DNA from: a virus
Lineage: Duplodnaviria > Heunggongvirae > Uroviricota > Caudoviricetes
Length of the DNA: 64,000 nt
Virus record (IMG/VR): IMGVR_UViG_3300028374_000006
Strand: one strand, 5' to 3'
Shown here: in pieces, positions 21,442 to 49,578 of the stretch
Position numbering within the stretch: position 1 is the stretch's first letter
Layout of the letters: every line of letters begins with the position of its first letter
Notes under the pieces: model-generated
What the model saw: only the letters and a program-made list of their open reading frames with translations
Told to the model about the DNA's origin: nothing
Databases searched by the model: none
Translations under genes and position numbers: made by a program

Positions 21442-21485
21442 TGATACGTATGTTAACGTACTAGATTCATTGTGGTATTCATTGA

Positions 21486-21560
21486 GCGCCCGTGGCTCAG
21501 TCAGGACAGAGCAGGAGGTTTCTACCCTCCGGGTCGCAGGTTCGAATCCTGCCGGGCGTG
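21486..21560 (+). tRNA. tRNA-Arg (anticodon UCU)
   Basis: Cloverleaf: acceptor GCGCCCG/CGGGCGU, anticodon loop UUUCUAC, T-arm GCAGGTTCGAATCCTGC. Confidence 0.8.
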
Positions 21561-21624
21561 CTACCGCTATCTAGCGGTGAGACGACGAACCCTTACGATA
21601 CTTATGACTACAAGAGAGGTACAG

Positions 21625-22362
21625 ATGTCGTCACAGAAACAAGAGTCGATGTTCACGAACATTCAGCAGCGGTTCATGGAGTTCCTCAACGACGGTGCCG
21701 ACGACGTGTTCGCCCCGTTGGAGGAACGTGAGCGGAGCCTCGACCGTCGCAAGGGCCATTTGGACAAGCGTGCAAACGAATTGTCCCAAAAGGAAAGCAA
21801 TCTCGATCGTCGGGAAAAGAGCCTTGTGGCACGCGAAGATGCTCTTCAGCGCATGGCTGGGCAGCTCGAAAAGAAGCTCGACCAGCACGAGTCCAACGTG
21901 CGTGACTTTCAAGCCACGTACAGCGATTTCCGGTCGTCATTCCGGGACTTCGACGAACAGGTGCGCGGTCTGGTTGCGCCCGAAGATGCCGAAGGTTCAC
22001 GTGTCGTGGTCCTCGACGACGCCCGTTCGGGTCAATTGTTTTCGAAAGAAAGCAAGGCCAAGTTCATCGAAGGCGACGATCTCTGTCCTCGTGAGCGTCA
22101 GGTCTACGCTTTCATCCAGAACTATTGCGATGAGAACAAGACCCACGGGGTCTGCGACCTGACCAACCGTGAGTTGCACCGGATGATGGACTATACGATC
22201 CCCGAAGGGACCATCACCAGCGTCATCTGTACCCTCAACAAAGAGGGTGTGCTTGCGAGCAACAAGGTCGTCATTGACGGCAAAAGGCGTCGTGAGGTCG
22301 TGTTGAATTACCGGCTTCGCAACCCGGAACAGTTCATCGAAAGCGCCCGCAATTCCGCCTGA
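21625..22362 (+). CDS. coiled-coil protein with C-terminal winged-helix-like domain (paralog A)
   Basis: GAGAGG RBS. The C-terminus 'CTLNKEGVLASNKVVIDGKRRREVVLNYRLRNPEQF' is paralogous to the next gene. The ORF-track N-terminus (21472) overlaps tRNA-Arg and is rejected. Confidence 0.6.
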   Translation: MSSQKQESMFTNIQQRFMEFLNDGADDVFAPLEERERSLDRRKGHLDKRANELSQKESNLDRREKSLVAREDALQRMAGQLEKKLDQHESNVRDFQATYSDFRSSFRDFDEQVRGLVAPEDAEGSRVVVLDDARSGQLFSKESKAKFIEGDDLCPRERQVYAFIQNYCDENKTHGVCDLTNRELHRMMDYTIPEGTITSVICTLNKEGVLASNKVVIDGKRRREVVLNYRLRNPEQFIESARNSA

Positions 22363-22374
22363 ATCGAGGACCGC

Positions 22375-22926
22375 ATGGCTTCCGACGTTCAAGACCTGAA
22401 GCGTAAATTCAAGGCTCAACTGGCGTCCGTAGTGGACGAGATGTTCGAAGCCCTTGAGACATGCGCATCCGACCTTGAACGTCGGGAAGCCGAACTCCTT
22501 GAGCGTGAAGTTCTTGTCGAAGATTTCCAGCAAGAGCTAGAAGCCCTCAGAAGCGACTTAGAGGCGACGGACAATCACGCACGGTATAGCACCCCCGAAA
22601 CCTATGCGGTGGACGGAGACACGTTCCTAGCGGCCTCAGAATTACCGGAACGTGAGCGGCATATCCTAGCGACCTTGCAGGTTATGTCTAAGCGTGATGA
22701 ACAGGGCCGGTGGTCCGTAGTAGTATCAACCAAGGAGTTGATGCGGGCTGCCAGCACGAACTTTGACCCGGTGACGAGGGGCGCGGCCTCAGCTTGCTTG
22801 ACCCGCCTCACCCACAAAGGGTTGATCGCTACTGAATCTTTGAACGGGCAGGGGTATCCCCGCCGTATCGTTTTGAAGGTTCGGTTAGAAAGCCCACAGG
22901 AATTCACGTCGTATACGCCCGGATAG
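22375..22926 (+). CDS. coiled-coil protein with C-terminal winged-helix-like domain (paralog B)
   Basis: C-terminus 'CLTRLTHKGLIATESLNGQGYPRRIVLKVRLESPQEF'. The 3' end overlaps tRNA-Thr by ~10 nt. Confidence 0.6.
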   Translation: MASDVQDLKRKFKAQLASVVDEMFEALETCASDLERREAELLEREVLVEDFQQELEALRSDLEATDNHARYSTPETYAVDGDTFLAASELPERERHILATLQVMSKRDEQGRWSVVVSTKELMRAASTNFDPVTRGAASACLTRLTHKGLIATESLNGQGYPRRIVLKVRLESPQEFTSYTPG

Positions 22927-22989
22927 CTCAGTTGGCAGAGCATTTCATTCGTAACGAAAAGGTCGCCGGTTCGAATCCGGCTCCGGGCT
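22917..22989 (+). tRNA. tRNA-Thr (anticodon CGU)
   Basis: Acceptor GCCCGGA/UCCGGGC, anticodon loop UUCGUAA, T-arm GCCGGTTCGAATCCGGC. Confidence 0.8.
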
Positions 22990-23005
22990 TTTAGGGTAGG
23001 CAATT

Positions 23006-23152
23006 ATGTCCTCTGAGAAAGTGTGTCCCGACTGTGATCGCCCCTTTGGGAGTGTTGAGCCTCCCAAAACGCTGTATCCTTATTGGATCTCATGTGCGAC
23101 TTGCAATCAGATTTACGTGAATGTGGAGCCGGGAAAGGTCGAAAATGAGTGA
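23006..23152 (+). CDS. small zinc-ribbon protein (48 aa)
   Basis: MSSEKVCPDCDRPF...CATCNQ. CxxC...CxxC; absent from the ORF track because under 60 aa. Confidence 0.4.
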   Translation: MSSEKVCPDCDRPFGSVEPPKTLYPYWISCATCNQIYVNVEPGKVENE

Positions 23153-23348
23153 TCTCGAATTGACCGAAGAAGAACAGGCCGAAGCCGACGAACAAGTCCG
23201 TAAGATCAACGAATGGCTCCAGTCCGATAAGGGTAAGGAGTCTGTGCGTAGGGCCAGCGAAAAGTCCCGGCAGAGCCGCCTTGAAAGGGCACGCAAACGC
23301 CGTGATCGTCAGAACAAAGCTATTGCGGCCATGCGGAGCTTGACGTGA
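23145..23348 (+). CDS. hypothetical acidic/basic small protein
   Basis: ATG overlaps the upstream stop; MSDLELTEEEQAE... Confidence 0.45.
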   Translation: MSDLELTEEEQAEADEQVRKINEWLQSDKGKESVRRASEKSRQSRLERARKRRDRQNKAIAAMRSLT

Positions 23349-23647
23349 GGTATTGCCGGATTCTGTTTACCCCGAGCCATTTCGAGGGCGTGGAATTCCC
23401 CCTTGGTGTGTTGCTTGAAAACGACGCGGGTGCTGTGATCCCTGTCCGGGCGTCGAAGTATCCCAGCAAGAAGTTTCTAGGCCCCCGGTGTTACATCTTG
23501 CTACGCGCCCTGTTGGAAGATTTTGATAAGGCCACGGCTTTATCTAGTATGTCGAATCGAAGCCCCCATGCGTGGGCCGAAGAGACAAAAGAGGTTCCCG
23601 AACACGAGGACGACCCGGTTAAATGGGTTCGTCGCTGTTTACCCTAA
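23345..23647 (+). CDS. hypothetical protein
   Basis: ORF, overlapping start. Confidence 0.45.
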   Translation: MRYCRILFTPSHFEGVEFPLGVLLENDAGAVIPVRASKYPSKKFLGPRCYILLRALLEDFDKATALSSMSNRSPHAWAEETKEVPEHEDDPVKWVRRCLP

Positions 23648-23658
23648 CTAGGAACATT

Positions 23659-23856
23659 ATGATGACGAAAGAAGAAGTACAGCGGGTGCATGATCAGTTC
23701 GTAAAATACAACAATGCCCTTGACGACACGCCGGATGCAAAGCTCTTGGAAGCCTACAAGGCATGTCCCGGCTTGATGGGTTACATCCGGGGGTCGAAAG
23801 GGTTGTTTGCGGCTATTTGCAAGGCTTACGATATCGAGCCGCAATTTGCGTATTGA
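23659..23856 (+). CDS. hypothetical small protein
   Basis: ATG after an AGGAAC RBS-like sequence. Confidence 0.45.
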   Translation: MMTKEEVQRVHDQFVKYNNALDDTPDAKLLEAYKACPGLMGYIRGSKGLFAAICKAYDIEPQFAY

Positions 23857-23881
23857 CGTAGCGATACGTATCTGATAGTAT
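23853..23881 (+). promoter_or_regulatory. sigma70-like promoter TTGACG-17-TAGTAT driving tRNA-His
   Basis: -35/-10 with 17-nt spacer ending 11 nt before the tRNA; the spacer contains the recurring GATACGTAT motif. Confidence 0.6.
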
Positions 23882-23891
23882 CAAGATGTAT

Positions 23892-23968
23892 GGTGCCTGT
23901 GGCGGAATTGGTAGACGCGCCGCACTGTGACTGCGGTTTTACTGCGGGTTCAAGTCCCGTCAGGCACC
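23892..23968 (+). tRNA. tRNA-His (anticodon GUG) with encoded G-1
   Basis: Acceptor GUGCCUG/CAGGCAC with extra 5' G opposite C73, anticodon loop CUGUGAC, T-arm GCGGGTTCAAGTCCCGT; the variable region is an unusual 7 nt. Confidence 0.65.
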
Positions 23969-23982
23969 CTTTAGGAGACAGT

Positions 23983-24282
23983 ATGTCGTTTTTCAAGCGG
24001 ATCTTGGGCTTAGGCAACGGACCAGAGCAACGTGTGGTTCCTGTCAAGCCCAAGACCATACCTATTGATCTGGACAATTTGCCTCGTGGTATTTACACCA
24101 TCGGCAACCAGAATCTTTTTGTTGAGGGTACCGCTAAGTATGGGAGCGATGAGGTCGTTATTTTCCGGCCTATCCGAACCGAAGATTGGCGAGTGATGGA
24201 AATCATCGAATTCGCAACGTCTTACCTGTACACCGAAACGGATGTGGTCATAAACCAAGTTCAGACTAACCGGGCATTTTGA
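23983..24282 (+). CDS. hypothetical protein
   Basis: AGGAGA RBS + ATG 23983; the ORF-track N-terminus overlaps the tRNA and is rejected. Confidence 0.55.
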   Translation: MSFFKRILGLGNGPEQRVVPVKPKTIPIDLDNLPRGIYTIGNQNLFVEGTAKYGSDEVVIFRPIRTEDWRVMEIIEFATSYLYTETDVVINQVQTNRAF

Positions 24283-24537
24283 ATGTTGAAGTTCGCAGAG
24301 TACGAAAAGGTCGAAGGTCTGAAAAAGTGCAAGAAAAAGGCCCCGGCCCACGCCAAGAAGATCAACGAGCCTTTCAGTGTCGTGACGATGGAGGGCACTA
24401 TGACGGGCAAGGCCGGTGATTTTTTGATGCGGGGCGTTAAGGGTGAACTTTACGTCTGTGATGCTGAGATCTTCGAAGAAACTTACGAGTTCACCGGGCC
24501 GCTGGGTTTTGTCGAGATTGACCCTAATGACTACTGA
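24283..24537 (+). CDS. hypothetical protein
   Basis: ORF. Confidence 0.5.
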   Translation: MLKFAEYEKVEGLKKCKKKAPAHAKKINEPFSVVTMEGTMTGKAGDFLMRGVKGELYVCDAEIFEETYEFTGPLGFVEIDPNDY

Positions 24538-24763
24538 AGCAAGTCGCTACACCTATGTGATCAAGCATGATGAGGACGAGGGCTATTTCATTGGCTTTTG
24601 TCTGGAGTTCCCTCTGTTGTCCGCAGATGGACTTACAGTCGAGCAGGCGTATGCGGCGATCGAAGAAGTTGTTTTTTGCGCGATACAAGATTCAGTAACA
24701 GACGGGGATTCTTACCCGGCACCCCTGTCGGTTGATGAGGTCCTCGCAGAGTTGCACGCATGA
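24527..24763 (+). CDS. HicB-like (UPF0150) antitoxin-fold protein
   Basis: 'YTYVIKHDEDEGYFIGFCLEFPLLSADGLTVEQAYAAIEEVVFCAI' matches the HicB N-domain pattern. Confidence 0.6.
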   Translation: MTTEASRYTYVIKHDEDEGYFIGFCLEFPLLSADGLTVEQAYAAIEEVVFCAIQDSVTDGDSYPAPLSVDEVLAELHA

Positions 24764-24927
24764 TGCCCCTTTTACCTTTCAAGCAGATCGAAGCCTCCGA
24801 TACTGGCTACAGTGCTCTGGAGCCAATGGCGTTTACTGTTGTAAGCATCATGGTCTTTTTCTTAGCTGTCATGGTGTTGGTGATGCTGATCGCCCTTGTT
24901 TATGCCTTTTGGCGGGGCGATCAATGA
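24760..24927 (+). CDS. small single-TM membrane protein (holin-like, 55 aa)
   Basis: Hydrophobic 'FTVVSIMVFFLAVMVLVMLIALVYAFW'; ATGA overlaps on both sides. Confidence 0.45.
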   Translation: MMPLLPFKQIEASDTGYSALEPMAFTVVSIMVFFLAVMVLVMLIALVYAFWRGDQ

Positions 24928-25136
24928 AAACCCTTATTTTTCATATCGCTCGATGCGTCGGCTTCTTGATATTCATCATGGTGTTTGTCCTGTTGATGGC
25001 GCACCGGTATGATTACCCTTCCCTGTCGACATTTTCCTATCTGGTTGAAAACTGGTGGGTGGTTGCATGGGGTGACTTCCTCATGGTACTATCGGCGATA
25101 CTTATCGGTGCCGAAGATTTACAGGAAATGCTATGA
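24924..25136 (+). CDS. small two-TM membrane protein (holin-like, 70 aa)
   Basis: Two hydrophobic segments (LIFHIARCVGFLIFIMVFVLLMA; WWVVAWGDFLMVLSAILIGA). Confidence 0.5.
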   Translation: MKTLIFHIARCVGFLIFIMVFVLLMAHRYDYPSLSTFSYLVENWWVVAWGDFLMVLSAILIGAEDLQEML

Positions 25137-25384
25137 CGGCTATGGACGACTTGCTTGAATTCGCTACAGAGTACGTAGAAGAAGCGGGCGGTTCGATAGA
25201 TGAGGTCGAAGTCTCCAAGGCTGTAACTTTGCAATCCCTCCTTGACCTTACAGGCTATACGTGTTTACGTACTGAGCGCAGTAAGTTGGGGTACGAGATT
25301 TTCGAATATCAAGCGCCGGAAGGGGATGAGAAAGTCCTTTTGATGCTTGACGTCATGACTGGTAATTGGATATCGGTCATATAG
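25133..25384 (+). CDS. hypothetical acidic protein
   Basis: ORF with overlapping start. Confidence 0.45.
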   Translation: MTAMDDLLEFATEYVEEAGGSIDEVEVSKAVTLQSLLDLTGYTCLRTERSKLGYEIFEYQAPEGDEKVLLMLDVMTGNWISVI

Positions 25385-25427
25385 TCGGGAATGAGCAACA
25401 GGTATTCTGTTGTTGTCCCCAAAGCAC

Positions 25428-25501
25428 GCCCACGTAGCTCAGTCTGGCAGAGCGGCTACCTTGTAAGTAGCTGGTCGGCGGTTCGAATCCGTCCGTGGGC
25501 T
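25428..25501 (+). tRNA. tRNA-Thr (anticodon UGU)
   Basis: Acceptor GCCCACG/CGUGGGC, anticodon loop CUUGUAA, T-arm GGCGGTTCGAATCCGTC. Confidence 0.85.
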
Positions 25502-25505
25502 TGAG

Positions 25506-25766
25506 GTGAGTATGGACGATCTGAAAAACAAGATAATGCGTGACCCCGTAGGTAGGGAAGCGCTGCGTAAAGCACCCCGAATCAAAGGGGATTTACCTAT
25601 CTTGATCGTACTTACTGACGGGTCTAAGCACTGGTTTCGCCGGGCACGCTCGACGAACCAAGATTTCGACAAGTACGTGTTATTCGATGAGAACGGCGCG
25701 GAACTTGTTGATCTTTCCGCAGAGGCCCAATTGGAAGAGGAACTCGCAGCCTTGACCAAAGAATAG
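25506..25766 (+). CDS. hypothetical protein
   Basis: ORF between two tRNAs; GTG 25506 or ATG 25512. Confidence 0.45.
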   Translation: MSMDDLKNKIMRDPVGREALRKAPRIKGDLPILIVLTDGSKHWFRRARSTNQDFDKYVLFDENGAELVDLSAEAQLEEELAALTKE

Positions 25767-25773
25767 CTTTTAA

Positions 25774-25857
25774 GCCGAAGTGATGGAATTGGTAGACTTG
25801 CCTGATTCAAAATCAGGTGGCCTTCGGGTCGTGTGGGTTCGACTCCCACCTTCGGCA
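25774..25857 (+). tRNA. tRNA-Leu (anticodon CAA), class II
   Basis: Acceptor GCCGAAG/CUUCGGC, D-arm GGAATTGGTAGA, anticodon loop UUCAAAA, long variable arm, T-arm GTGGGTTCGACTCCCAC. Confidence 0.85.
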
Positions 25858-25867
25858 CTTATCCCCT

Positions 25868-26374
25868 ATGAAAAAGATCCTTACATTCAACGTTTTCAGG
25901 GCACTCCGTGATCTCCCCCGAATGAAAGAGGCCGGTACGGACTATGCTCTGGTGGAGTTTGTTTCCCCACCTTCCGAACCACTGTGGGCTATCTTCGAAG
26001 AGGATAACCCGCGCCACGAGTTCTTTTGCTTTGACGACGTGACGTCCCCGTGGGCCGTCTCCACGGCTTCTTTGGCCGGGTACCAAGCGCCAACCGATGA
26101 CGATATCCAAAGGCTTCTCGATGCGTCTGATACGCTCCTAGAGGCTGAGTACGTCTATTGTCATTGTGAAGCGGGTATCAGCCGGTCTACGGCTGCAGCT
26201 TACATCCTCCATTGTATTGATCTAGGTCCGGGCCTGCGCCGGGAAGTATGGTGCAGAGGTCCAAAATGGTCGCATGGATCCTTTGGATGTGGAAACAATA
26301 GACCCGTCGTACACGACGTTAAAAGATCAAAATTAAGCCCCCGTGGCCCAAATGGAATGAGGCACGGCACTTAA
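25868..26374 (+). CDS. CX5R protein tyrosine / dual-specificity phosphatase
   Basis: 'VYCHCEAGISRSTAAAYI' (HCxxGxxRS) active site. The 3' tail overlaps the next tRNA, so the true stop is uncertain. Confidence 0.7.
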   Translation: MKKILTFNVFRALRDLPRMKEAGTDYALVEFVSPPSEPLWAIFEEDNPRHEFFCFDDVTSPWAVSTASLAGYQAPTDDDIQRLLDASDTLLEAEYVYCHCEAGISRSTAAAYILHCIDLGPGLRREVWCRGPKWSHGSFGCGNNRPVVHDVKRSKLSPRGPNGMRHGT

Positions 26375-26413
26375 AATGCCGGTTAGTTGTGGGTTCGAGT
26401 CCCACCGGGGGTA
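26337..26413 (+). tRNA. atypical tRNA, anticodon UAA (Leu-type) with class-I architecture, A73
   Basis: Acceptor GCCCCCG/CGGGGGU, anticodon stem CGGCA/UGCCG, loop CUUAAAA, only 7-nt variable region, T-arm GTGGGTTCGAGTCCCAC. Confidence 0.6.
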
Positions 26414-26434
26414 CTTGAATACTGGAGTTACGGC

Positions 26435-26650
26435 ATGTCTGAATATAAGCCCGCCATACATCCGAAGACTTTAATCAAAGCCGCTCGGAGAAAGTATGAA
26501 AAAGAACCCCCACAACACCCAATAGTGGTTTCGGGGTACTCTGCACTTTTACTAAAGAATTTTACTCCTAAATTAAGGCAAGTGATCACGGAAGTTGCAA
26601 ACGAAGCAAGAGATCTCACTCTTGTTTACGAGGAAGGCACTTACGAGTGA
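26435..26650 (+). CDS. hypothetical small protein
   Basis: CTGGAG RBS + ATG 26435; the upstream ORF-track extension overlaps the tRNA. Confidence 0.45.
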   Translation: MSEYKPAIHPKTLIKAARRKYEKEPPQHPIVVSGYSALLLKNFTPKLRQVITEVANEARDLTLVYEEGTYE

Positions 26651-26720
26651 GATCGGGCCTTTGGGGACATTTACAATAAGCATTATCAAGCGATAATGAA
26701 TCCAACAGAAAGGGACAGAA

Positions 26721-26975
26721 ATGCCGGATAACTATTCGATGGACATTGAATTTTACGATGATGAGGATACAGCCGGGTCAGATCACCCATTCGAATTTCA
26801 CGAATTTTCGCACCCTGTTCCCGTACCGAATGTGTCGGAAGAAGTGGTTGTAGGGGGACGGGGCGAAGATTTTAGTATGGTTAGGGGTACTATTAAGCGT
26901 CGTAAGTTCATGTATTACAGCGTCGATAGTAAATTGCGTGTGATGCTTTACTTGACCGGGGTTGAAAATGCGTGA
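26721..26975 (+). CDS. hypothetical protein
   Basis: ORF. Confidence 0.45.
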   Translation: MPDNYSMDIEFYDDEDTAGSDHPFEFHEFSHPVPVPNVSEEVVVGGRGEDFSMVRGTIKRRKFMYYSVDSKLRVMLYLTGVENA

Positions 26976-35873: not shown

Positions 35874-36360
35874 CCTAGTGCTATATCCGAATGACGTTTT
35901 GATTCAGCCGACTATCGAGGTTGAAGCAACGTCGGAAGATACCCATGCCTTGGTGCAGGATCTCGTCGATACCATGCACAATGCGAAAGGTGTCGGCTTG
36001 GCTGCCCCGCAAGTGGGTGAGTCTAAGCGGGTATGTATCGTAGAGTTCGAGGATGAACTACACGTGCTGGTTAATCCCCGCATTCTAGAGTGGGAAGGCA
36101 CCCCCGAAGCCGACGAAGAAGGGTGCCTTAGTTTCCCCGGTGTGTATACCCCTGTCGAAAGGTCGCCGAAGATCCGGGTTAAGTATCAGACCCCCGAGGG
36201 TGATGATATCGACCGGGAAGTTGAAGGGTTCTTAGCCCGAGCCTTTCAGCACGAAATCGACCACCTCAACGGCGTTCTGTTCATCGACCGAATGAGTGCT
36301 CTGCGCAAGCGGATGGCGCTGAAAAAGTATCGCAAGTTCCTGAACCGGAGGAACAAATGA
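35860..36360 (+). CDS. def: peptide deformylase
   Basis: Motifs 'GVGLAAPQVG', 'EGCLSFPGV', 'QHEIDHLNG'. Confidence 0.9.
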   Translation: MTIRDLVLYPNDVLIQPTIEVEATSEDTHALVQDLVDTMHNAKGVGLAAPQVGESKRVCIVEFEDELHVLVNPRILEWEGTPEADEEGCLSFPGVYTPVERSPKIRVKYQTPEGDDIDREVEGFLARAFQHEIDHLNGVLFIDRMSALRKRMALKKYRKFLNRRNK

Positions 36361-36770
36361 GCGACGATTTAGACATCGAAAACATGAGCGACGACGAGTT
36401 GCGGACCGAAGTTGCGGACATGGGTGAAAACATGGTCCGTAAGGTTTGCCAGCAGCTAGCTGTTTATTACCTTCGCAAGATCGACGAAGCAACGCTAGGA
36501 CAAATCGACCAAACGCTGTTCGAGGACGAGTCAGAGGTTCATCTTTATGAGGTGGTGAAACAGGTGGCCGAGGATATTCGGCGGCTTGAAGCTGCACGTG
36601 AACATAAAAAAGCGTTCCTAGCTCTCAAAGACCTTACCGAACCCCTTGCGGTTTTTTTCGAAAGTGTGATGGTCATGGCTGACGATGAGGCCGTGAAGCA
36701 AAACCGAATGCGCCTGCTCGCCGAGGTACGGGATACGTATCTTATGTTAGCTGATTTCTCTTTTCTCTGA
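36357..36770 (+). CDS. stand-alone homolog of glycyl-tRNA synthetase beta-subunit C-terminal (anticodon-binding) region
   Basis: 'EPLAVFFESVMVMADDEAVKQNRMRLLAEVRDTYLMLADFS' closely resembles the GlyS C-terminal 'FFDNVMVMAEDEALRNNRLALL...ADIS'. ATGA overlap with def. Confidence 0.6.
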   Translation: MSDDLDIENMSDDELRTEVADMGENMVRKVCQQLAVYYLRKIDEATLGQIDQTLFEDESEVHLYEVVKQVAEDIRRLEAAREHKKAFLALKDLTEPLAVFFESVMVMADDEAVKQNRMRLLAEVRDTYLMLADFSFL

Positions 36771-36779: not shown

Positions 36780-37127
36780 ATGATGAGTGTTCCTATGCAA
36801 AAGGTGCGGGCTTGGGCTATCAGTTGGGAGGACAAATGGGCAGACCATTACCACCGAACGGGCAAAGCAGGACACCCCGGCTTTAACGGGTTGGTTACGG
36901 TCGTAGACGAATCAGGATCTACGTTCACGTATTTCGACGCTTTCGCGGTCAAGCACTGTCCCCGAGGTTGGGACGATGATTTTGTGGTGGTCTTTACTGA
37001 GCACCACGGGTTCCATATTTTTGCCGAAGACGATCTATTACACTATTCGCAGTGGGAAGACCGGGTACGGATTCCCCACCACGACGACGACCATAAAGAG
37101 ATAGCCCATGACGGAAACACTGCCTAA
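36780..37127 (+). CDS. hypothetical protein
   Basis: ORF. Confidence 0.45.
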   Translation: MMSVPMQKVRAWAISWEDKWADHYHRTGKAGHPGFNGLVTVVDESGSTFTYFDAFAVKHCPRGWDDDFVVVFTEHHGFHIFAEDDLLHYSQWEDRVRIPHHDDDHKEIAHDGNTA

Positions 37128-39593: not shown

Positions 39594-39658
39594 CGTTACC
39601 ACACCGCTGTGGTACGTATTGCTAGTGTTTGACCCCAACTAATACGAAGAGAAATACG

Positions 39659-42379: not shown

Positions 42380-42388
42380 GGCGAACGT

Positions 42389-43119: not shown

Positions 43120-43504
43120 TTTTCCAGAAAACGATCACGTCTACAACATGTTTGTAGAGGTCCTAGAGTGGCTGAAACTGTATGACGAAGCAGGTCTGAA
43201 TCCGATGGTTCTATCGGCAGACGATCCTGTGGATGCTACCATAGGTTTCACGGTGGTCGTTGACAGTGATGCGGATTTGACGGCGCATTCAAGGCTGTTC
43301 TTGGGGTACATCAAGCAACAGAAAGAGCACCCGGAATCGGAACGGTTCTTTTTGTTCACGCCACCCATCGGGGACGTGACTCAGAAATATATCAAAACCG
43401 CCCAAGGTAGGACCTCCATAGCCAATCGGCTGACCAATGCGGACCTTACTCGGCCAATCCCCGAAATCTTGACAGATGTTCGAACATGGGGGCTTGCCGA
43501 ATAG
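43112..43504 (+). CDS. hypothetical protein
   Basis: ATG 43112 overlaps the upstream stop. Confidence 0.45.
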   Translation: MPDFPENDHVYNMFVEVLEWLKLYDEAGLNPMVLSADDPVDATIGFTVVVDSDADLTAHSRLFLGYIKQQKEHPESERFFLFTPPIGDVTQKYIKTAQGRTSIANRLTNADLTRPIPEILTDVRTWGLAE

Positions 43505-43532
43505 ATACGTATCGTGATATGTTAGAGTGAAT

Positions 43533-43622
43533 GGAGCGCTTGGCATGTGGTACGCCAGCCGGTTTTGAAAACCGTGTGGTCGCCGGAAGGCGGCTTAGGG
43601 GTTCGACCCCCCCTGCGCTCCT
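43533..43622 (+). tRNA. tRNA-Ser (anticodon UGA), class II
   Basis: Acceptor GGAGCGC/GCGCUCC, anticodon loop UUUGAAA, long variable arm, T-arm GGGGTTCGACCCC. Confidence 0.75.
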
Positions 43623-43635
43623 TGAGGAGTTATGG

Positions 43636-43857
43636 ATGGCTGAATGGGAGCGCCAAATAGCGGGTGAAGACGTAGACGCCATTATAGGTACCTGTATCTG
43701 TTGTGGTCTTGCCGCTCAAATGGCTGTGACTTTGTTCAATTACGAAGGCGCTGATCCCATTCAAATGTGTGACCTTTGCTATTCGATAACCGAAGACAAC
43801 GATTTGGACCCGATTGAAGTAGCGGCGTCTTGCGTTGTTGACGATTTAGAGGAATAG
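43636..43857 (+). CDS. hypothetical Cys-rich small protein
   Basis: 'CICCGL...CDLCYS'; the ORF-track N-terminus overlaps the tRNA and is rejected. Confidence 0.45.
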   Translation: MAEWERQIAGEDVDAIIGTCICCGLAAQMAVTLFNYEGADPIQMCDLCYSITEDNDLDPIEVAASCVVDDLEE

Positions 43858-43862
43858 CATAC

Positions 43863-43951
43863 GGAGTGGTTGACAAGGCTGGCACGTCAGGCTGTTTCGA
43901 AAACAGTTCGGTCGCTTTTGCGGCTTGGGGGTTCGATCCCCTCCCACTCCG
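43863..43951 (+). tRNA. tRNA-Ser (anticodon CGA), class II
   Basis: Acceptor GGAGUGG/CCACUCC, anticodon loop UUCGAAA, long variable arm, T-arm GGGGGTTCGATCCCC. Confidence 0.75.
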
Positions 43952-44002
43952 CTTCATTACCATTTCAAGGGTGTGGATAATTCATTTATCTTCGGGTAAG
44001 GT

Positions 44003-44359
44003 ATGTCTGGTTATTATTCCATCCTACAGTACATGCCCGACCCGGAACGGCGCGAAGCCGTCAATTTCGGCGTCATGTTGCTAGAAAAAGAGACGGGTCA
44101 GTTCAGTTGGATCTTGACTCGTCCGATCAGGCGTATCCAGAGGTTCTTTCCCGGCACTTCAGAAGCGTACCTTAACGATCTTATGACCGCTTTTTACAAC
44201 CGTATCTGTGCCGAACAGGTCAACGACTTAGATGATCTCACCCATTTTGCAATCACACGTGGCGGTGTCGTGCAATGTAGTGAGCCGCAGTGGGTTGATT
44301 TCGCACATAAAGACATGCCCAAGGTTCTCCAGCGTTTGCTAGAGGACCTTGTTTTTTAG
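44003..44359 (+). CDS. hypothetical protein
   Basis: ORF. Confidence 0.5.
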   Translation: MSGYYSILQYMPDPERREAVNFGVMLLEKETGQFSWILTRPIRRIQRFFPGTSEAYLNDLMTAFYNRICAEQVNDLDDLTHFAITRGGVVQCSEPQWVDFAHKDMPKVLQRLLEDLVF

Positions 44360-44712
44360 TAGTCCCGGTAGACCGCGTGCCCGGTTTCAACGAGGCGGTC
44401 GCTGACGTTGACCTGATTACCCTCAAGTTCAACGAATAGTTCGGCAATGTAACGCCCGTATTTACCTGTTTTTTCGGTCTTGATCTTGATCACAGACCCT
44501 ACGGGGATAAGCTCTTCAAGATAAGACTTAGCTGTGATCCCCCGTTGATACTCCTCGGAAGAGTGTTTGACCCCGAAGATTTCGGGGGCGTCAATACGGG
44601 CGATGCGAAGTCGGACGTCGTAAGATACCTGAAATCCCAAGTCGATATTGACGTCGAGGGTATCGGCATCAACGATTCGGGTAACAGTGGCACGGTAGTT
44701 CCAGAGATCCAT
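44356..44712 (-). CDS. staphylococcal-nuclease (thermonuclease) homolog
   Basis: 'ATVTRIVDADTLDV...RLRIARIDAPE' SNase motifs. A longer alternative start at 44790 is possible. Confidence 0.7.
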   Translation of the reverse strand: MDLWNYRATVTRIVDADTLDVNIDLGFQVSYDVRLRIARIDAPEIFGVKHSSEEYQRGITAKSYLEELIPVGSVIKIKTEKTGKYGRYIAELFVELEGNQVNVSDRLVETGHAVYRDY

Positions 44713-44736
44713 TGGCTGCTCCTTCGGTAAGTTAGG

Positions 44737-45192
44737 TTGTGTATGGTACAGTACAAACGAAATACCCCTGATCCTGAAAAGTTGGCCCATGATTTCTTAC
44801 TCGACATCGTAGGTCACGTGATTGATCTCCGTGAACAAGGCTGTGAGCCGCAGCTCTATATCGAATCCGGCCTATGGGATGAACGTGTGGTCAGGGTGTA
44901 TGTTTGGGATGCGGTAGAAGGGTCGCGTCGGGAGGTGTTCGAGATGGGTGAAATGATTCTCCGTCAGACTCGCTTTGCCGACGCATGGCTGTATAGGGAA
45001 GGTCGTTTGACTCTGGCGGAGGCATTGGCGTCAGCAGGGGGGATCGCAGAGGTAGATACCGCTAAGTATCTTCGGGAAGAGGTCGAAAGGCGGCGTGATG
45101 CAGTTGACGATCAATGGGAAGCTGAAAAGAAAGAGATGCCAGCGGGTTCGGGAGTAGGTTTTGGCGCACTTGCCCGGATAGCACAGGAATAA
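44737..45192 (+). CDS. hypothetical protein
   Basis: ORF. Confidence 0.45.
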   Translation: MCMVQYKRNTPDPEKLAHDFLLDIVGHVIDLREQGCEPQLYIESGLWDERVVRVYVWDAVEGSRREVFEMGEMILRQTRFADAWLYREGRLTLAEALASAGGIAEVDTAKYLREEVERRRDAVDDQWEAEKKEMPAGSGVGFGALARIAQE

Positions 45193-45232
45193 CCTTGACG
45201 ACCTACGAGGTTATGTGGTACGTATTATATAC

Positions 45233-45320
45233 GGAGGGTTGCCTGAGTTGGTAAAGGGCCGGATTGCTAATCCGAGGCGTCGATTATTTCGGCACGTGGG
45301 TTCGAACCCCACACCCTCCG
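45233..45320 (+). tRNA. tRNA-Ser (anticodon GCU), class II
   Basis: Acceptor GGAGGGU/ACCCUCC, anticodon loop UUGCUAA, long variable arm, T-arm GTGGGTTCGAACCCCAC. Confidence 0.8.
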
Positions 45321-45473
45321 CTGATATAACGAAGCCCCCGGTGGTTGAAACTGCCGGGGGCTTCGTTGCGATTTCCACCGAAGCGGAAGCAAGAAAATAC
45401 ATCTTGACTTGCTACTAACCTGTATTACAAGTAAAGTATTGGCCCCTACGACCACTAGTACGAGGATGAAATC

Positions 45474-45779
45474 ATGGGCGACCGAGGCAACATTTTTTTC
45501 GTAGACCAACGCGATGAGGAAGAAGGTACCTGTGCGGGTATTTACATGTACACCCATTGGGCCGGATACGATTTGCCACAGATTCTTCAGGAGGGCTTGA
45601 AGCGTGGCCGTAGCCGGTGGGATGATCCGCAATACCTGCCGCGTATTCTGTTTTGCGAGATGGTCAAAGACGATATCGAAGGGGAAAGGTGCTATGGACA
45701 TTTTGGAAGCAGAACCTACATGCGAATGTGGGAGCAAAAACGTCACCTTTATCATGTCACCTACGAGTCGCGTATTTGA
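45474..45779 (+). CDS. hypothetical protein
   Basis: ORF. Confidence 0.45.
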   Translation: MGDRGNIFFVDQRDEEEGTCAGIYMYTHWAGYDLPQILQEGLKRGRSRWDDPQYLPRILFCEMVKDDIEGERCYGHFGSRTYMRMWEQKRHLYHVTYESRI

Positions 45780-45933
45780 TGGGGTTGCGGGTACCCTTCG
45801 GTGTGACGAAGAAGATTGTGGGCGTCGTATCAATGCGATTAAGCATCATCGTCGTGACTATCCCAATCTGAAAGTTGATCGTTCAAAGTTTGATGAGTTT
45901 CAGGGTATGATATGTCCTGATCGAAGTAGGTAA
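45694..45933 (+). CDS. hypothetical zinc-ribbon-like protein
   Basis: 'CECGS...CDEEDCG'; overlaps the previous ORF in another frame, so one of the two may be spurious. Confidence 0.35.
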   Translation: MDILEAEPTCECGSKNVTFIMSPTSRVFDGVAGTLRCDEEDCGRRINAIKHHRRDYPNLKVDRSKFDEFQGMICPDRSR

Positions 45934-46019
45934 GCTGGAGTGGCGGAACTGGTAGACGCGCTACACTCAGACTGTAGTGGGCTTTGTAGCCCGTGTGGGT
46001 TCGAATCCCACCTTCAGTA
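45934..46019 (+). tRNA. tRNA-Leu (anticodon CAG), class II
   Basis: Acceptor GCUGGAG/CUUCAGU (2 G-U), D-arm GGAACTGGTAGA, anticodon loop CUCAGAC, long variable arm, T-arm GTGGGTTCGAATCCCAC. Confidence 0.75.
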
Positions 46020-46022
46020 TTT

Positions 46023-46268
46023 ATGGCTGACGTGCTCGAAATAAGGCAAGATGAGTTGCCGCCTACGAAGTATGATCCTTTCCTCTGCACTGAGGATGTG
46101 TTACAATTAAGGCGAGCTTTAATGCCTTTGTTGTATTCATACGAAAAGCCACTCGATGACCACGAACAGGTGGTGATTGTGGCGACGGCTAATTTCGAAG
46201 ATGGTCGAGCTATCGGAGTTAAGAATAACCTTGGCCCCCTTTCCGATTTGGATCGCGGGTTCAAATGA
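46023..46268 (+). CDS. hypothetical protein
   Basis: ATG just after the tRNA; the upstream extension in the ORF track overlaps the tRNA. Confidence 0.45.
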   Translation: MADVLEIRQDELPPTKYDPFLCTEDVLQLRRALMPLLYSYEKPLDDHEQVVIVATANFEDGRAIGVKNNLGPLSDLDRGFK

Positions 46269-46449
46269 TGCATCGTGAAGAGGCTCTTAGAACCCTTGGT
46301 ACCAAGGCGAAGTCGAAGCGGTGAAACGGCCCCGAAGTGTCCCAAGAGGCTGGGCCTGTCGTTGATACTATACCAACGGGTGGTATCTCGATCCATACAA
46401 AGCGCCGTTGGTGGGTGAGGCGGGGCCTTTAAGCTCGCCGACTTTTTAC

Positions 46450-46522
46450 GCCTCCGTATCCCAACGGCAGAGGACGCGGATTTAGAATCCGTTCAGTGTG
46501 AGTTCGAATCTCACCGGAGGCA
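46450..46522 (+). tRNA. atypical class-I tRNA, anticodon UAG (Leu-type codons CUA/CUG), A73
   Basis: Acceptor GCCUCCG/CGGAGGC perfect 7 bp, D-loop AACGGCAG, anticodon stem GCGGA/UCCGU, loop UUUAGAA, variable UCAGU, T-arm GTGAGTTCGAATCTCAC. Confidence 0.55.
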
Positions 46523-46524
46523 TT

Positions 46525-46812
46525 TCAAGGCAAATCACCCTCATAGTACGTGCGAAGTCGTTTCCTCACGGCATTATCTGATACGCCGAGATCACGTGCT
46601 ACAGCGGAATAGTTCCTTGACCGCACACGTTCCACCAGTACAGCACAAGACGGCCAATCAACCTTAGTGTCACGGGCTTTTCCGGCACAAGATTTACACC
46701 GAGTAGCTTTCCTGCTGATCGGCGTACCACAATCTTTACAACTATTCGGTTCCGAGCTACTAGCGACCGCTAGTTGTTTGTGGTGACAGTCAATACATCG
46801 TTTGGCCCCGCC
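46525..46812 (-). pseudogene. start-less remnant encoding a zinc-ribbon + HTH domain (homing-endonuclease C-terminal-like)
   Basis: Minus-strand frame translates to '...CKDCGTPISRKATRCKSCAGKARDTKVDW...YSAVARDLGVSDNAVRKRLRTYYEGDLP*' with no ATG/GTG/TTG start in the frame. It abuts the tRNA. Confidence 0.4.
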
Positions 46813-46846
46813 TTACCGAAAAAGGTCTAAAAACATTCTGGTCTGT

Positions 46847-46875
46847 TTGACACGTACCTCATCCTGTGGTACGTT
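46847..46875 (+). promoter_or_regulatory. sigma70-like promoter TTGACA-17-TACGTT with TGG extended -10
   Basis: Perfect -35 hexamer, 17-nt spacer, TGn motif. Confidence 0.4.
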
Positions 46876-46977
46876 CTAAATGCCCAAGCGGGTCGCACCC
46901 GGCCCCCTGCCTCCATAGGCTTATGGTAGGGGGTGTCGCCTCATGAGGCGAACTTGGGCTCCATTACTACCCGGAGT

Positions 46978-47241
46978 ATGACGATGCCTTGGCTCTTTGA
47001 AGTCCATAATACCCTCGATTTCAACCCGTGTTGCGACACAAGCATGGCGAGGATTGTGGACGCGGATTTTTGGGAAGAGCATGGGCACTTCGACGACCAG
47101 CACCTCCTCGAGATTTTGCAAGAAGAATTCGCTGATTTCCGGGGTGAAGAGTTAATGGAAGGTGTGTTCGACTTTGACATGCCTGCCCAAGAGACGACCG
47201 CATACCTTACCAGTCTGGGCATGCGCCCGATGGTTGAGTAA
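46978..47241 (+). CDS. hypothetical acidic protein
   Basis: ORF; ATG 46978 or 46984. Confidence 0.45.
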   Translation: MTMPWLFEVHNTLDFNPCCDTSMARIVDADFWEEHGHFDDQHLLEILQEEFADFRGEELMEGVFDFDMPAQETTAYLTSLGMRPMVE

Positions 47242-47263
47242 CTACGATACGAGCAATACTACG

Positions 47264-47779
47264 ATGCACGATCTATCAAAGGCTTCCCTCCCTACGCTGG
47301 ACACTCACATCACCGGCGTCGAATCCCGCAAACGACTTGACGAGCTGCAGACACAGCTTGATCAGGTGCGGTATCACGAATTGCAATTTCAGATGCAGTT
47401 CGTCGCTTTCGACAAAAAAGAGCGCCCCCACCGGTTCAACGACCTCCCCACCAAAAAGACCAAGTACAGCAAGTTCATGATGGTCTTGGTGCGTGTGGAT
47501 CCTAAAGGTAAAGAGGTTGAGTGGTATGGCCCCATCTGGTTTGTGGACCCCGACAAGAACGGTAAAAAGCGCTATCTCACCGGCATTGATTTGACCCGAA
47601 TGCACTGGTACGCCAGTAAAGGGTCACGCCCTTGTCCTACGGTGACGCTTGACCGTAATGATGTGGGCGAAGATGTAGAGTATGCCTACATGTCTGGGGG
47701 CGGGACATGGGTTCGCGTCCCTTCAATCACCGATGAATTTGGTCGTGTCCTGTCCCTGTATGACATCAACCTCTGGTGA
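47264..47779 (+). CDS. hypothetical protein
   Basis: ORF (ATG 47264). Confidence 0.5.
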   Translation: MHDLSKASLPTLDTHITGVESRKRLDELQTQLDQVRYHELQFQMQFVAFDKKERPHRFNDLPTKKTKYSKFMMVLVRVDPKGKEVEWYGPIWFVDPDKNGKKRYLTGIDLTRMHWYASKGSRPCPTVTLDRNDVGEDVEYAYMSGGGTWVRVPSITDEFGRVLSLYDINLW

Positions 47780-47782
47780 CGT

Positions 47783-48073
47783 GTGCTAAACCTTTTCAGC
47801 ATATTTCGGTTGGGCCGTGACCCGTGTGAGAGCTACGGACATTCGTTTCGCTTTGACCATAGGTATATCCACCCTTCCGGGTTGCCTATGGTCTATACGC
47901 GATGTAGACGGTGCGACACAGGATGTTCGCAGCCTGACTGGAACGAACTGAGTGGCCCGGAAAAGGTGACGATCCTTGTTTCCGGGGATGAATTTTACGA
48001 CCACCTCCGATTAACAGCACCGTTCAAAGAGGATTTTGAGCGGCGACGAAAAGAGATATACGGTTATGGGTGA
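47783..48073 (+). CDS. hypothetical protein with CxxC pair
   Basis: 'CRRCDTGC'. Confidence 0.45.
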   Translation: MLNLFSIFRLGRDPCESYGHSFRFDHRYIHPSGLPMVYTRCRRCDTGCSQPDWNELSGPEKVTILVSGDEFYDHLRLTAPFKEDFERRRKEIYGYG

Positions 48074-48545
48074 AGAAATCGAGCGCAAGTTCAAAGTTGA
48101 AGACGAATCTTGGCGTGATCATGTGGGCAAATCCAGTATGATCATGCAAGGGTACATCACGGATGGTGATTCCGATAGCGGTGCTGCCGTCCGGTTGCGT
48201 CTGAAAGACAACAAGGGCTACCTGACAGTCAAAGAGAACGGGAACACGCAACTGGTACGGGCTGAATTCGAATATGAAATCCCGGAAGGCGATGCGGTCC
48301 AGATGCTCCGGGACTTTTGTTCTGAGGTCATCACCAAGGTCCGCAACTATGTGGAAGTTGGTGGGCATACGTGGGAAATCGACGAATTTTTTGGGGATAA
48401 CGAGGGGTTGATTACCGCCGAGATAGAGCTTGACGATCCCGACGAAGATTTCGAAGTGCCGGAATGGGCGGGTGAAGAGGTTACGGAACAGAAGAAGTAC
48501 TCCAATTTCCAACTGGCTTTACGTCCGTATAAGGGTTGGGAATGA
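48066..48545 (+). CDS. CYTH-domain protein (triphosphatase / CyaB-like)
   Basis: N-terminal 'EIERKF' (ExExK signature) plus acidic 'WEIDEF' and 'ITAEIEL' strands. Confidence 0.7.
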   Translation: MGEEIERKFKVEDESWRDHVGKSSMIMQGYITDGDSDSGAAVRLRLKDNKGYLTVKENGNTQLVRAEFEYEIPEGDAVQMLRDFCSEVITKVRNYVEVGGHTWEIDEFFGDNEGLITAEIELDDPDEDFEVPEWAGEEVTEQKKYSNFQLALRPYKGWE

Positions 48546-48756
48546 CGTACAGGGTAGCTATTATCGAAGAGGGTTACTTAGATCAACTCAAAGGGTTCCC
48601 CTCAGAAGACGCCCGAGCACTGTGGATGGAAGGTTTTCATGACGGCGTAGAGTACAGTGGTTTAGGTTCCACCTATGCCGTGGCGACTCGGAGTTCGAGA
48701 AGGTATTCAAGTATATCATGAACGATGCTAATTTTTAACTCTAAAAGGTTCCCAAA

Positions 48757-48969
48757 ATGAACAATTACCCTAAGATTAGTTTTTCACAGTTCAAAACTCT
48801 TTTGAAGCGTGCAAAGAAGAAAGAGGACGAGAGTCCTGCAAAAAAGAAGCAAGACGACCACGCAGAGAAGAACCAAGAGAAATTGGAAAAGCACCGCAAA
48901 AAGATTGACAAAGAGGTCGACGAAGATCATTCTGAAAAGGGAAAGGATCTGGTCAAAGAAAAGAAGTAA
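48757..48969 (+). CDS. small K/E-rich protein
   Basis: Low-complexity lysine/glutamate-rich 70-aa ORF. Confidence 0.35.
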   Translation: MNNYPKISFSQFKTLLKRAKKKEDESPAKKKQDDHAEKNQEKLEKHRKKIDKEVDEDHSEKGKDLVKEKK

Positions 48970-49075
48970 CCTGAATCCCGATCAGAAAAAGACCCGTTAA
49001 TCTATTTGTATTAATCTATTTGTAAAGGCCAGTCATTGGCCAGTCCTCAAGTACCTAATTTTCATGGAGAATAGA

Positions 49076-49447
49076 ATGTCACTAAAAGACCAACTGATTA
49101 AGCTTGGATACGAAAAGCCTGAACTTCGCGATAACCTCAGACCCATTCTCGCCACTCTGGATAAGGCCGCTCACAGTGGACACTCTGACTCTCTCCACAC
49201 ACCAAGTGGAACCGGTGGGTTTGCTGTGAATACTCCAGACCTAGCAGCGTTGTCTTGGTTCGCTTATGCGGTAGCGCCAGCAGGTATCCGTAATAAGGCT
49301 GAAAAGTTAGAAAGGGCCAAAGATATTACTCTTCGTGAAGTCCTTCGGCATACTGAACGTCAGACTGACGACGTTACTATCGAGTATTTAGAGCGCAATT
49401 TTGAAGAAGTACGTTCTCGATACCTAAGTGTTGAGGAAAGGCGCTAA
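49076..49447 (+). CDS. hypothetical protein
   Basis: GGAG RBS 6 nt before ATG 49076. Confidence 0.5.
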   Translation: MSLKDQLIKLGYEKPELRDNLRPILATLDKAAHSGHSDSLHTPSGTGGFAVNTPDLAALSWFAYAVAPAGIRNKAEKLERAKDITLREVLRHTERQTDDVTIEYLERNFEEVRSRYLSVEERR

Positions 49448-49507
49448 CGATAAAGACGCGCATTCTTTCGTATTTCAGCGAGATAGTGCAAGGGAAGCTA
49501 GTAGCAT

Positions 49508-49536
49508 TTGACGGTGACTAGTCACTCTGGTATAAT
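49508..49536 (+). promoter_or_regulatory. consensus sigma70 promoter TTGACG-17-TATAAT upstream of tRNA-Val; the spacer holds the 12-bp palindrome GTGACTAGTCAC
   Basis: Exact -10 consensus, 17-nt spacer, and a perfect palindrome at 49514..49525. Confidence 0.7.
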
Positions 49537-49578
49537 GGGTTGGGAACATGATACGTACCGGTCGTGTTTCTTACGCAC

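Follow-up and report, generated by a model that had tools for sequence, protein, structure and literature searches.

A recurrent 10-bp palindrome at tRNA promoters of a large uncultured phage, a candidate operator common to two promoter classes

Why should a short, perfectly symmetrical sequence recur in front of the tRNA genes of a phage? The question is raised by a 64,000-nucleotide stretch of DNA (the window) from the virus record IMGVR_UViG_3300028374_000006 (Caudoviricetes), which occupies roughly positions 164,462-228,461 of a metagenomic contig (ena:ERZ27315384:k141_231862; 230,823 bp) of a large uncultured phage with 52% G+C. The 9-mer GATACGTAT has seven exact copies on the plus strand of the whole window (2539, 6674, 12791, 21443, 23863, 36732 and 43504); three of them extend to the 10-mer palindrome GATACGTATC, and a variant, GATACGTACC, lies at 49550. 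Four of these sites stand before the genes for tRNA-Arg(UCU), tRNA-His, tRNA-Ser(UGA) and tRNA-Val. Judging from sequence patterns, we put at about 0.5 the probability that a dimeric DNA-binding protein uses GATACGTATC as its operator over tRNA promoters of two sigma classes, probably to repress them.

Enrichment and symmetry of the motif

The seven copies of GATACGTAT compare with 0.30 expected from dinucleotide shuffles (in which the largest count was 2) and with 0.46 expected from a third-order Markov model, an enrichment of 15- to 20-fold over both null models (Poisson P < 1e-6). An earlier note on this DNA had described a recurrent, non-random motif, and that description is borne out by the copy number and by the intergenic bias reported below; the 9-mer does not occur at chance frequency. 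All of the instances that it listed are present, including the one at 49550 that it gave as a variant (the variant type upstream of tRNA-Val is GATACGTAC), but it overlooked the copy at 2539 and AATACGTAT at 18361.

An arbitrary 8-mer is palindromic with a chance of 1/256. Here positions 2-9 form the perfect palindrome ATACGTAT, which is the commonest palindromic 8-mer of the window with eight copies, the next commonest having six. Position 1 is G in all copies and position 10 is C in five of the seven promoter-proximal copies; the full 10-mer GATACGTAYC is likewise present in five of those seven. A fourth full copy of GATACGTATC (L137:3266) falls just outside the window, 22 nt to the left of its first position, with the gene at 12-251 starting 34 nt downstream of it. 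The consensus thus has the dyad symmetry expected of an operator, and its perfect core fits the dimeric regulator that the earlier note had proposed.

The copies are also biased towards regulatory DNA. In a gene map assembled from gene calls on identical contigs, intergenic sequence amounts to 7.9% of the window, against four of the seven copies (binomial P = 0.001). For five of the seven, a plus-strand gene or tRNA begins within 60 nt downstream of the motif start (P = 2.6e-4), and matches with up to two mismatches are likewise concentrated in intergenic DNA. From the motif start to the 5' end of the tRNA there are 43 nt at Arg, 30 at His and 29 at both Ser(UGA) and Val, in approximate agreement with the 25-40 nt given earlier for these four genes. 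Similarity between the copies stops at 10 bp and their flanks are unrelated, so the copies are not duplications. Multiple, over-represented copies with a preference for regulatory regions are again what an operator should show. An intrinsic terminator or RNA structural element is not what we see: 10 nt is too short for a hairpin with a loop, there was no terminator-like hit at any palindrome copy, and Rfam yielded tRNAs only.

Placement within promoters of two sigma classes

Two kinds of promoter can be read in the window. A listing of all TTGAC(G/A) strings gave the family tTTGACR-N14-(G/T)GG-TAYRNN, with 15 plus-strand copies (-35 starts at 1309, 6615, 11507, 15335, 18500, 21091, 30931, 33050, 33598, 35228, 39590, 45195, 46847, 49508 and 59984), 14 of which are intergenic. 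The family often has the TG of an extended -10 and tolerates C at the third -10 position (TACGTA, TACGTT, TACCAT, TACAGG); by its sequence it is a sigma70-type promoter. A further match lies beyond the window (L140:4707). A promoter matrix was built from this family, and the ranks given below are out of 63,957 positions.

Such a promoter precedes tRNA-His on the plus strand at 23853-23881, with TTGACG at 23853-58, a 17-nt spacer and TGa-TAGTAT (-10 at 23876-81); it scores 9/12 with TG in the consensus scan and has matrix rank 29. The perfect palindrome at 23863-23872 sits in the middle of the spacer, at about -25 to -16. At tRNA-Ser(UGA), where the perfect copy occupies 43504-43513, two promoter readings overlap on the plus strand at 43494-43523, one of them sigma70-like (TTGCCG-18-TGa-TATGTT; matrix rank 31). 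The spacer centre coincides with the palindrome centre in the sigma70-type readings of both genes, and the identical 4-nt offsets that had been remarked upon are confirmed: TTGACG-tagc-GATACGTAT-ctga-TAGTAT and TTGCCG-aata-GATACGTAT-cgtg-ATATGT. A -35/-10 pair spaced by 16-18 bp can thus be read at His and Ser, and it cannot at 36732 or in the TTGGGA reading at Val.

The second class came to light through the phage's own sigma factor. The sigma gene mentioned in the earlier note is a genuine one of the extracytoplasmic function (ECF) type, called at 13858-14424 on the minus strand and carrying the Pfam domains Sigma70_r2 and r4_2. Its best NCBIfam match is TIGR02947 SigH_actino (113 bits against a cutoff of 251), and because of this SigH-like match we scanned for the sigmaH/sigmaE consensus, GGAA(T/C)-N17-19-GTT (PMC10012870). 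The nine hits on the plus strand are about what composition predicts, and five are largely intergenic; wholly intergenic hits, however, number four against 0.62 expected in shuffles (P = 0.0035), while the minus strand of the window has no intergenic hit. A tRNA gene (Thr-UGU, Ser-GCU or Val) begins 11-21 nt downstream of three of the five, which match the consensus exactly, and allowing one -35 mismatch adds Arg (GGAAG-N18-GTT) and Ser-UGA (CGAAT-N18-GTT). In the tRNA-upstream regions of three phages the strict consensus is found in 5/27 against 0.18 in shuffles, and the relaxed one in 9/27 against 1.21. In three related phages promoters of this form precede tRNA genes by 8-21 nt, a suitable distance for the ECF sigmaH/E type; in the window almost no protein-coding gene has one. 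Classical ECF patterns with a CGT -10 (GGAAC-N-CGT, AAC-N16-17-CGTA) are not enriched.

The likeness to sigmaH/sigmaE/sigmaR promoters (PMC10012870) concerns the context of the palindrome, not the palindrome itself, and it differs from known sigmaH/E systems in that phage tRNA genes take the place of stress genes as targets and that no anti-sigma gene was seen. In the numbering of that paper the last GGAAY base is -31, so that N18 puts GTT at -12 to -10. On that scale, transcription from the ECF-type promoters of tRNA-Ser(UGA), Val and Thr(UGU) would begin at the mature 5' end or 1-4 nt ahead of it, and the start predicted for Ser(UGA) from the GTT position is tRNA nucleotide 1 (43533). These distances suggest that a phage ECF sigma transcribes a tRNA regulon whose transcripts are nearly leaderless. 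The sigma of the window is the candidate reader of GGAAY-N18-GTT, not of the palindrome. The ECF-type promoter of tRNA-Thr(UGU), GGAAT-N19-GTT at 25388-25414 on the plus strand, has no palindrome, and upstream of tRNA-Ser(GCU) (45186-45225, plus strand) GGAAT-N19-GTT at 45186-45212 overlaps a sigma70-type TTGACG-18-TACGTA. Further ECF-type matches lie at 46606-46631 and 60379-60405.

Three of the four tRNA copies of the palindrome fall within promoters of this second class. The other reading at Ser(UGA) is CGAAT (43498-502)-N18-GTT (43521-23), which places the palindrome in the spacer at about -29 to -20. The region before tRNA-Val has tandem promoters on the plus strand (49508-49568): a sigma70-type TTGACG-17-TATAAT at 49508-49536, matching the consensus at 11/12 with TG, is followed by GGAAC (49543-47)-N18-GTT (49566-68), and the variant palindrome at 49550-49559 lies in the spacer of the latter (-28 to -19) and also at about +7 to +16 of the former. 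Before tRNA-Arg, GATACGTATG at 21443-21452 on the plus strand begins 2 nt after the upstream stop codon; it occupies the 3' half of the spacer of GGAAG (21429-33)-N18-GTT (21452-54), an ECF-type candidate at 21429-21454 on the plus strand, at about -21 to -12, and it borders on the -35 of another possible promoter, TTAACG-17-TGg-TATTCA. The sigma70-type hexamers of the earlier note therefore make a good promoter at His, but Ser-UGA, as well as Val and Arg, fits the ECF type at least equally well. Its (T)ATGTTA(G) tail does follow three copies (TATGTTA at 21449, 36743 and 43518), each within 15 nt and with only five TATGTTA on both strands of the window; it is best read, however, as the GTT -10 region of ECF-type promoters, outside the palindrome, and the gap from the 9-mer to GTT varies (0, 7 and 8 nt).

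The remaining copies are more diverse. That at 36732-36741, a perfect palindrome, covers the last codons of the gene at 36357-36770, 48 nt before the ATG of the gene at 36780-37127, and is followed by TATGTTA at 36743-49. At 6674-6683 (plus strand), GATACGTATG overlaps the ATG (6681) of a DUF1848 gene and lies about 25 nt downstream (about +25 to +34) of the predicted start of a sigma70-type promoter at 6615-6643. GATACGTATT at 12791-12800 (plus strand) falls in the last codons of a minus-strand RlaP-like gene, between convergent genes, where a minus-strand promoter-like match, TTGACA-16-TATCGT, overlaps it; a function for this copy is doubtful. The promoter-proximal placement claimed for the motif therefore holds for most copies, with 12791 as an exception and 6674 already on a start codon. 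Finally, GATACGTAT at 2539-2547 (plus strand) lies inside the gene at 2077-2739 and encodes D-T-Y, as does GATACGTAC at 2638, 99 nt further downstream in the same gene; these two are probably a coding coincidence.

An operator reading and its alternatives

Wherever a promoter can be read, then, the palindrome lies in the core promoter or just after it, at variable offsets and in two sigma classes: by consensus matches only, it overlaps the spacers at His, Ser, Val and Arg and stands just downstream at 6674 and Val. Sigma factors do not read spacer DNA base-specifically, so a perfect dyad recurring in spacer DNA points to a separate dimeric protein. Operators, moreover, take variable offsets in the core promoter, whereas elements contacted by sigma keep a fixed one. 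On the operator reading a dimeric, sequence-specific protein, encoded by the phage or by its host, would recognise GATACGTATC and govern a regulon made up of tRNA-Arg, tRNA-His, tRNA-Ser(UGA), tRNA-Val and a few protein-coding units. Where the promoter is readable its site would be at about -29 to -12, or just past the predicted start, and the bound dimer would compete with RNA polymerase; since the site overlaps the polymerase footprint, the protein most likely represses. The promoters concerned would be of the host sigma70 type and of the ECF sigmaH/E type, the latter probably read by the phage ECF sigma, and the palindrome would form a layer of control that is independent of sigma class.

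Several known systems resemble this arrangement. The OR sites of lambda CI/Cro, LexA boxes and lac-type spacer operators are likewise short dyads found at several promoters between -35 and +30 with variable offsets, and such placement implies competition with RNA polymerase. Typical operators, however, measure 14-20 bp rather than the 10 bp seen here, the regulon here consists mainly of tRNA genes with two sigma classes, and, unlike in lambda-type systems, no lysogeny module was seen and no repressor gene was found. In size, a closer analogy is offered by the MetJ 'metbox' (AGACGTCT) and by the operators of Arc, CopG and omega, which are also compact 8-10 bp palindromes with an ACGT or CG centre. 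A palindrome of 8-10 bp suits one dimer reading a single major groove, and a reader of the ribbon-helix-helix type would, by this analogy, fit the 10-bp dyad better than a helix-turn-helix protein. Metboxes, though, come as tandem arrays of 2-5 copies, while the copies here are single with neighbours that are degenerate at most.

Only one gene of the window was found to encode a classical helix-turn-helix regulator, an Xre/HTH_19-type protein of 108 aa (52627-52953, plus strand). It lies 3 kb downstream of the palindrome-bearing tRNA-Val promoter on the same strand, with no sigma70-type promoter between them; autoregulation through the Val palindrome is conceivable but unsupported, and the protein is a weak candidate for the binder. 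The small proteins encoded after perfect copies (79 aa, 12-251; 115 aa, 36780-37127) were considered as autoregulators and set aside, having no domain hits and no resemblance to DNA-binding proteins.

The relatives of this phage, which share a conserved dUTPase - sigma - GyrB - Lon module, help to separate the palindrome from the promoters. In the relative L126, with 76% identity in Lon and a syntenic sigma of 56% identity, GGAAC-N18-GTT stands before tRNA-Arg (11 nt from GTT to the tRNA) and GGAAT-N18-GTT before tRNA-Ser(UGA), upstream of 12660 and 20754. The palindrome is absent from all 22 kb of it, and the spacers of the orthologous Arg and Ser(UGA) promoters are unrelated. The presence of ECF-type tRNA promoters without the palindrome in L126 indicates that the palindrome is a lineage-specific overlay and not part of the promoter. 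A more distant relative, L003, has GGAAT-N18/19-GTA before two tRNAs (13 nt from GTA to the tRNA; upstream of 13843 and 14874). The motif does not exceed chance in L126/L006 (Lon 76% identical), L003, L149, L150 or L151, so that a site conserved while its flanks diverge, as an operator might show, is not seen among these relatives; the strain-level contigs, at 99.7-100% identity, are uninformative on site conservation. A repeated 11-mer, TCGCAATAGTT, occurs in L126 at 12638 and 14434, with one copy overlapping the spacer and GTT -10 of the tRNA-Arg promoter; it could be the counterpart of the palindrome or mere promoter similarity.

A number of observations weigh against the operator. There is no convincing -35 at 36732 or at the copy to the left of the window, and 12791 and 2539 lie outside any promoter context. 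The promoter assignments are all consensus matches, and the DNA examined was 72 kb of a genome of at least 230 kb; the flanks covered extend 8.4 kb to the left and 2.4 kb to the right of the window. The relatives found, with Lon, the 369-aa protein and sigma as queries against IMG/VR, JGI metagenomes, GTDB genomes and a large protein database, all have Lon identities of 76% or less, and none has the motif. A Pfam scan of about 40 small open reading frames gave no DNA-binding domain beyond HTH_19/Xre and no ribbon-helix-helix protein; the link of the HTH_19/Xre protein to the motif is circumstantial, and a 10-bp dyad with half-sites 5 bp apart appears too compact for typical helix-turn-helix dimers. 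Lastly, all five copies that fall short of the full 10-mer palindrome are oriented along transcription, and intergenic GATAC is found 18 times on the plus strand against 6 for its complement GTATC, which hints at a directional component.

Were the operator to be real, it would define a small phage regulon and provide a 10-bp handle on its regulator. Such an element belongs to an ordinary and well-known kind and leaves current concepts unchanged; more unusual is its context, that is, ECF-type promoters that serve largely phage tRNA genes and are common to a phage clade. The timing of tRNA-gene expression in large phages is poorly understood, and the result is a testable cis-regulatory map in which host-type promoters serve protein operons, an ECF-type class stands mainly before tRNAs and a lineage-specific palindrome is laid over four tRNA promoters. 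We offer only as a tentative proposal, more doubtful than the operator itself, that the phage ECF sigma of the clade transcribes tRNAs from starts near their mature 5' ends and that one lineage has added, over these promoters and a tRNA promoter of the sigma70 type, a dedicated repressor-operator pair built on GATACGTATC, which together would make a temporal tRNA switch. If transcription does begin where the ECF-type signals predict, some phage tRNAs could arise with 5' ends close to mature, and little or no trimming by RNase P would then be needed.

The alternative that survives best, although we consider it improbable, keeps the protein-binding site and makes the protein an activator or sigma-helper that recruits RNA polymerase or remodels the promoter, turning these tRNA promoters on at a certain stage in the manner of MerR-type spacer binders and of MotA in phage T4. 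This reading would explain why the site is exactly centred in two spacers, and the -35 elements are weak (CGAAT at Ser, GGAAG at Arg, none found for 36732), as is typical of activator-dependent promoters. Activators act from fixed positions, however, and MerR-type proteins need sigma70 spacers of 19-20 bp; the sites here are centred in spacers of 17 and 18 bp, and the site centre lies anywhere between about -24 and -16, counted from the predicted start, with further sites at about +7 to +34.

A little less probable still is the suggestion that the phage sigma reads the 9-mer alone, as a promoter of a single element. There is a precedent in phiEco32, whose middle and late promoters consist of a single element, AATGTA, centred at -11.5 (PMC12276001), and whose gp36 is likewise a phage sigma of the ECF branch paired with a short recurring upstream element. 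The 29-30 nt that separate the motif from three tRNAs are nearly constant, the non-palindromic copies are oriented along transcription, and TACGTAT is found at the -10 of two sigma70-type promoters (39590, 45195), whose -10 regions carry GGTACGTAT at 39611 and 45217, the latter agreeing with the palindrome at 8/10 positions. The phiEco32 element, though, is non-palindromic and fixed, whereas here the offset to GTT varies, and dyad symmetry would have no role in -10 recognition by sigma. The phage sigma has a normal region 4, and the bipartite GGAAY-N18-GTT signal that already flanks the motif is kept at orthologous tRNAs, without the 9-mer, by the relative with the 56%-identical sigma. A start for 6674 would be inside coding sequence, and 12791 faces convergent genes. 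The earlier note's idea that the palindrome is the cognate element of the phage sigma is thus unlikely: the motif has neither the fixed position nor the bipartite form of an ECF element, it is found in or near sigma70-type promoters as well, and it is absent where a sigma homologue is present. Nor does it serve as a hexamer of the other class. Taken as a -35, it is followed by -10 positions without a common consensus and by starts that would be inside the tRNAs; with its TACGTA taken as a -10, none of the four tRNA copies has a -35 at a distance of 16-18 nt upstream. The MotA boxes of T4 are likewise recurrent promoter motifs, but they are asymmetric and fixed at -30, while the palindrome is symmetric and variable in position.

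We regard with greater scepticism the possibility that the palindrome is the recognition site of a DNA enzyme, namely a nicking or homing HNH endonuclease, a methyltransferase or a recombinase. A short perfect palindrome with a central CG is typical of such sites; among the genes of the window are those for at least three HNH proteins, for two N6/N4 methyltransferases and for restriction-modification systems of Type ISP and Type III; and strains differ by the gain or loss of a tRNA cassette. An enzyme site would have no reason to be inside core promoters, however, and the recognition sites of Type ISP and Type III enzymes are short and asymmetric. The repeat does not extend beyond 10 bp, and the one strain-specific indel that was examined, an insertion carrying tRNA-Thr(GGU), has no palindrome near its junction. 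A mobile promoter cassette or recombination site of the PeSL kind fails on the same two points. T4-type PeSL cassettes resemble the palindrome in being recurrent promoter motifs of plastic regions rich in small open reading frames and tRNAs, as MotA boxes also are, but they are longer promoter-plus-stem-loop repeats that flank shuffled modules, whereas there is no stem-loop here.

That the motif has no function, being a compositional or coding by-product or the remnant of duplicated promoter DNA, is very improbable: D-T-Y codons do account for 2539 and 2638, and TACGTA is common between genes (13/29 occurrences) and is tolerated as a -10 in sigma70-type promoters of this phage, but the enrichment is 15- to 20-fold, the flanks are unrelated and TATGTTA, with its five occurrences in the window, lies within 15 nt of three copies. 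Chance is excluded for the set of copies as a whole and is plausible for 2539 and perhaps for 12791.

Other features of the window and its relatives

Several other short sequences recur in the window. TACGTA and ACGT-rich strings are generally frequent in the intergenic DNA of this phage. Intergenic GATACG outnumbers its complement CGTATC by 10 to 2, an asymmetry that the palindrome copies explain only in part, and (N)ATACG is often found 0-10 nt past stop codons (4264, 29296, 30884, 47246 and 60307). The 10-mer AACAGTTCGG occurs five times (1099, 7489, 17056, 17248 and 43902) against about 0.1 expected; four copies are coding, and the fifth falls in the variable arm of tRNA-Ser(CGA). Perfect palindromes present once each lie in or adjoin promoters: GTGACTAGTCAC (49514-49525) in the spacer of the Val sigma70-type promoter, ATGTTCGAACAT (43476-43487) after a TTGACA, GCTAGATATCTAGC (about 18066-18079), GTAACGTTgAACGTTAC (6646-6662) and CGTAGCGCTACG (1346-1357); these may be operators for other regulators. 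A literature search for GATACGTATC returned primer sequences only, and the pattern TTGNCGNNNNGATACGTAT proved too unspecific in a scan of IMG/VR, where more than 119 unrelated contigs each had a single hit.

The insertion that distinguishes a co-occurring strain measures 358 nt (L001:14591-14948 against window 23296-23305) and carries the extra tRNA-Thr(GGU) (L001:14633-14704) with a different small open reading frame; it is joined at a 10-nt microhomology, AACGCCGTGA, and a second assembly breaks exactly there. L126 also has a tRNA-Thr(GGU), directly before tRNA-His.

The window contains 12-13 tRNA genes and fragments of aminoacyl-tRNA-synthetase-like genes, and encodes the Lon protease, GyrB, the ECF-type sigma factor, a peptide deformylase, two restriction-modification systems and an Apyc1-like protein. 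A tRNA called by Rfam at 60533-60602 (38.7 bits) was not reported by ARAGORN, and ARAGORN's serine tRNAs at 43533 and 43863 are not listed by Rfam at its gathering threshold. In a genome that is otherwise 92% coding there are long non-coding gaps at 46523-46977 (455 nt), 43623-43862 (240 nt), 58522-58826 (305 nt) and 60299-60541 (243 nt); the 455-nt gap has an ECF-type match (46606), a sigma70-type match (46847) and no Rfam family.

INPHARED phage records gave no nucleotide match to the window and distant protein matches only, and no isolated phage is close. Outside the phage clade, whose Lon proteins are 61-76% identical, the Lon nearest to that of the window (18716-21073) is from Bradymonadales (Persicimonas, Lujinxingia, Bradymonas; 58-60%), a hint, from protein similarity, either of the host or of where the gene came from. 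Defence and counter-defence cargo is dense at 2742-3542, 53217-57278, 58827-59987 and from 61025 to beyond 64000, and at L140:459-3001. Within the window it comprises the Apyc1-like anti-Pycsar hydrolase, a Type ISP restriction-modification enzyme, a Type III mod/res pair and an orphan methyltransferase that is 99.75% identical to a copy on a different phage contig (L134); upstream of the window are a Gad2-like protein and a Cpn60 chaperonin. Inteins occur in the relatives, in GyrB (L149, 1070 aa) and apparently in Lon (P0010, 1129 aa, with a LAGLIDADG domain).

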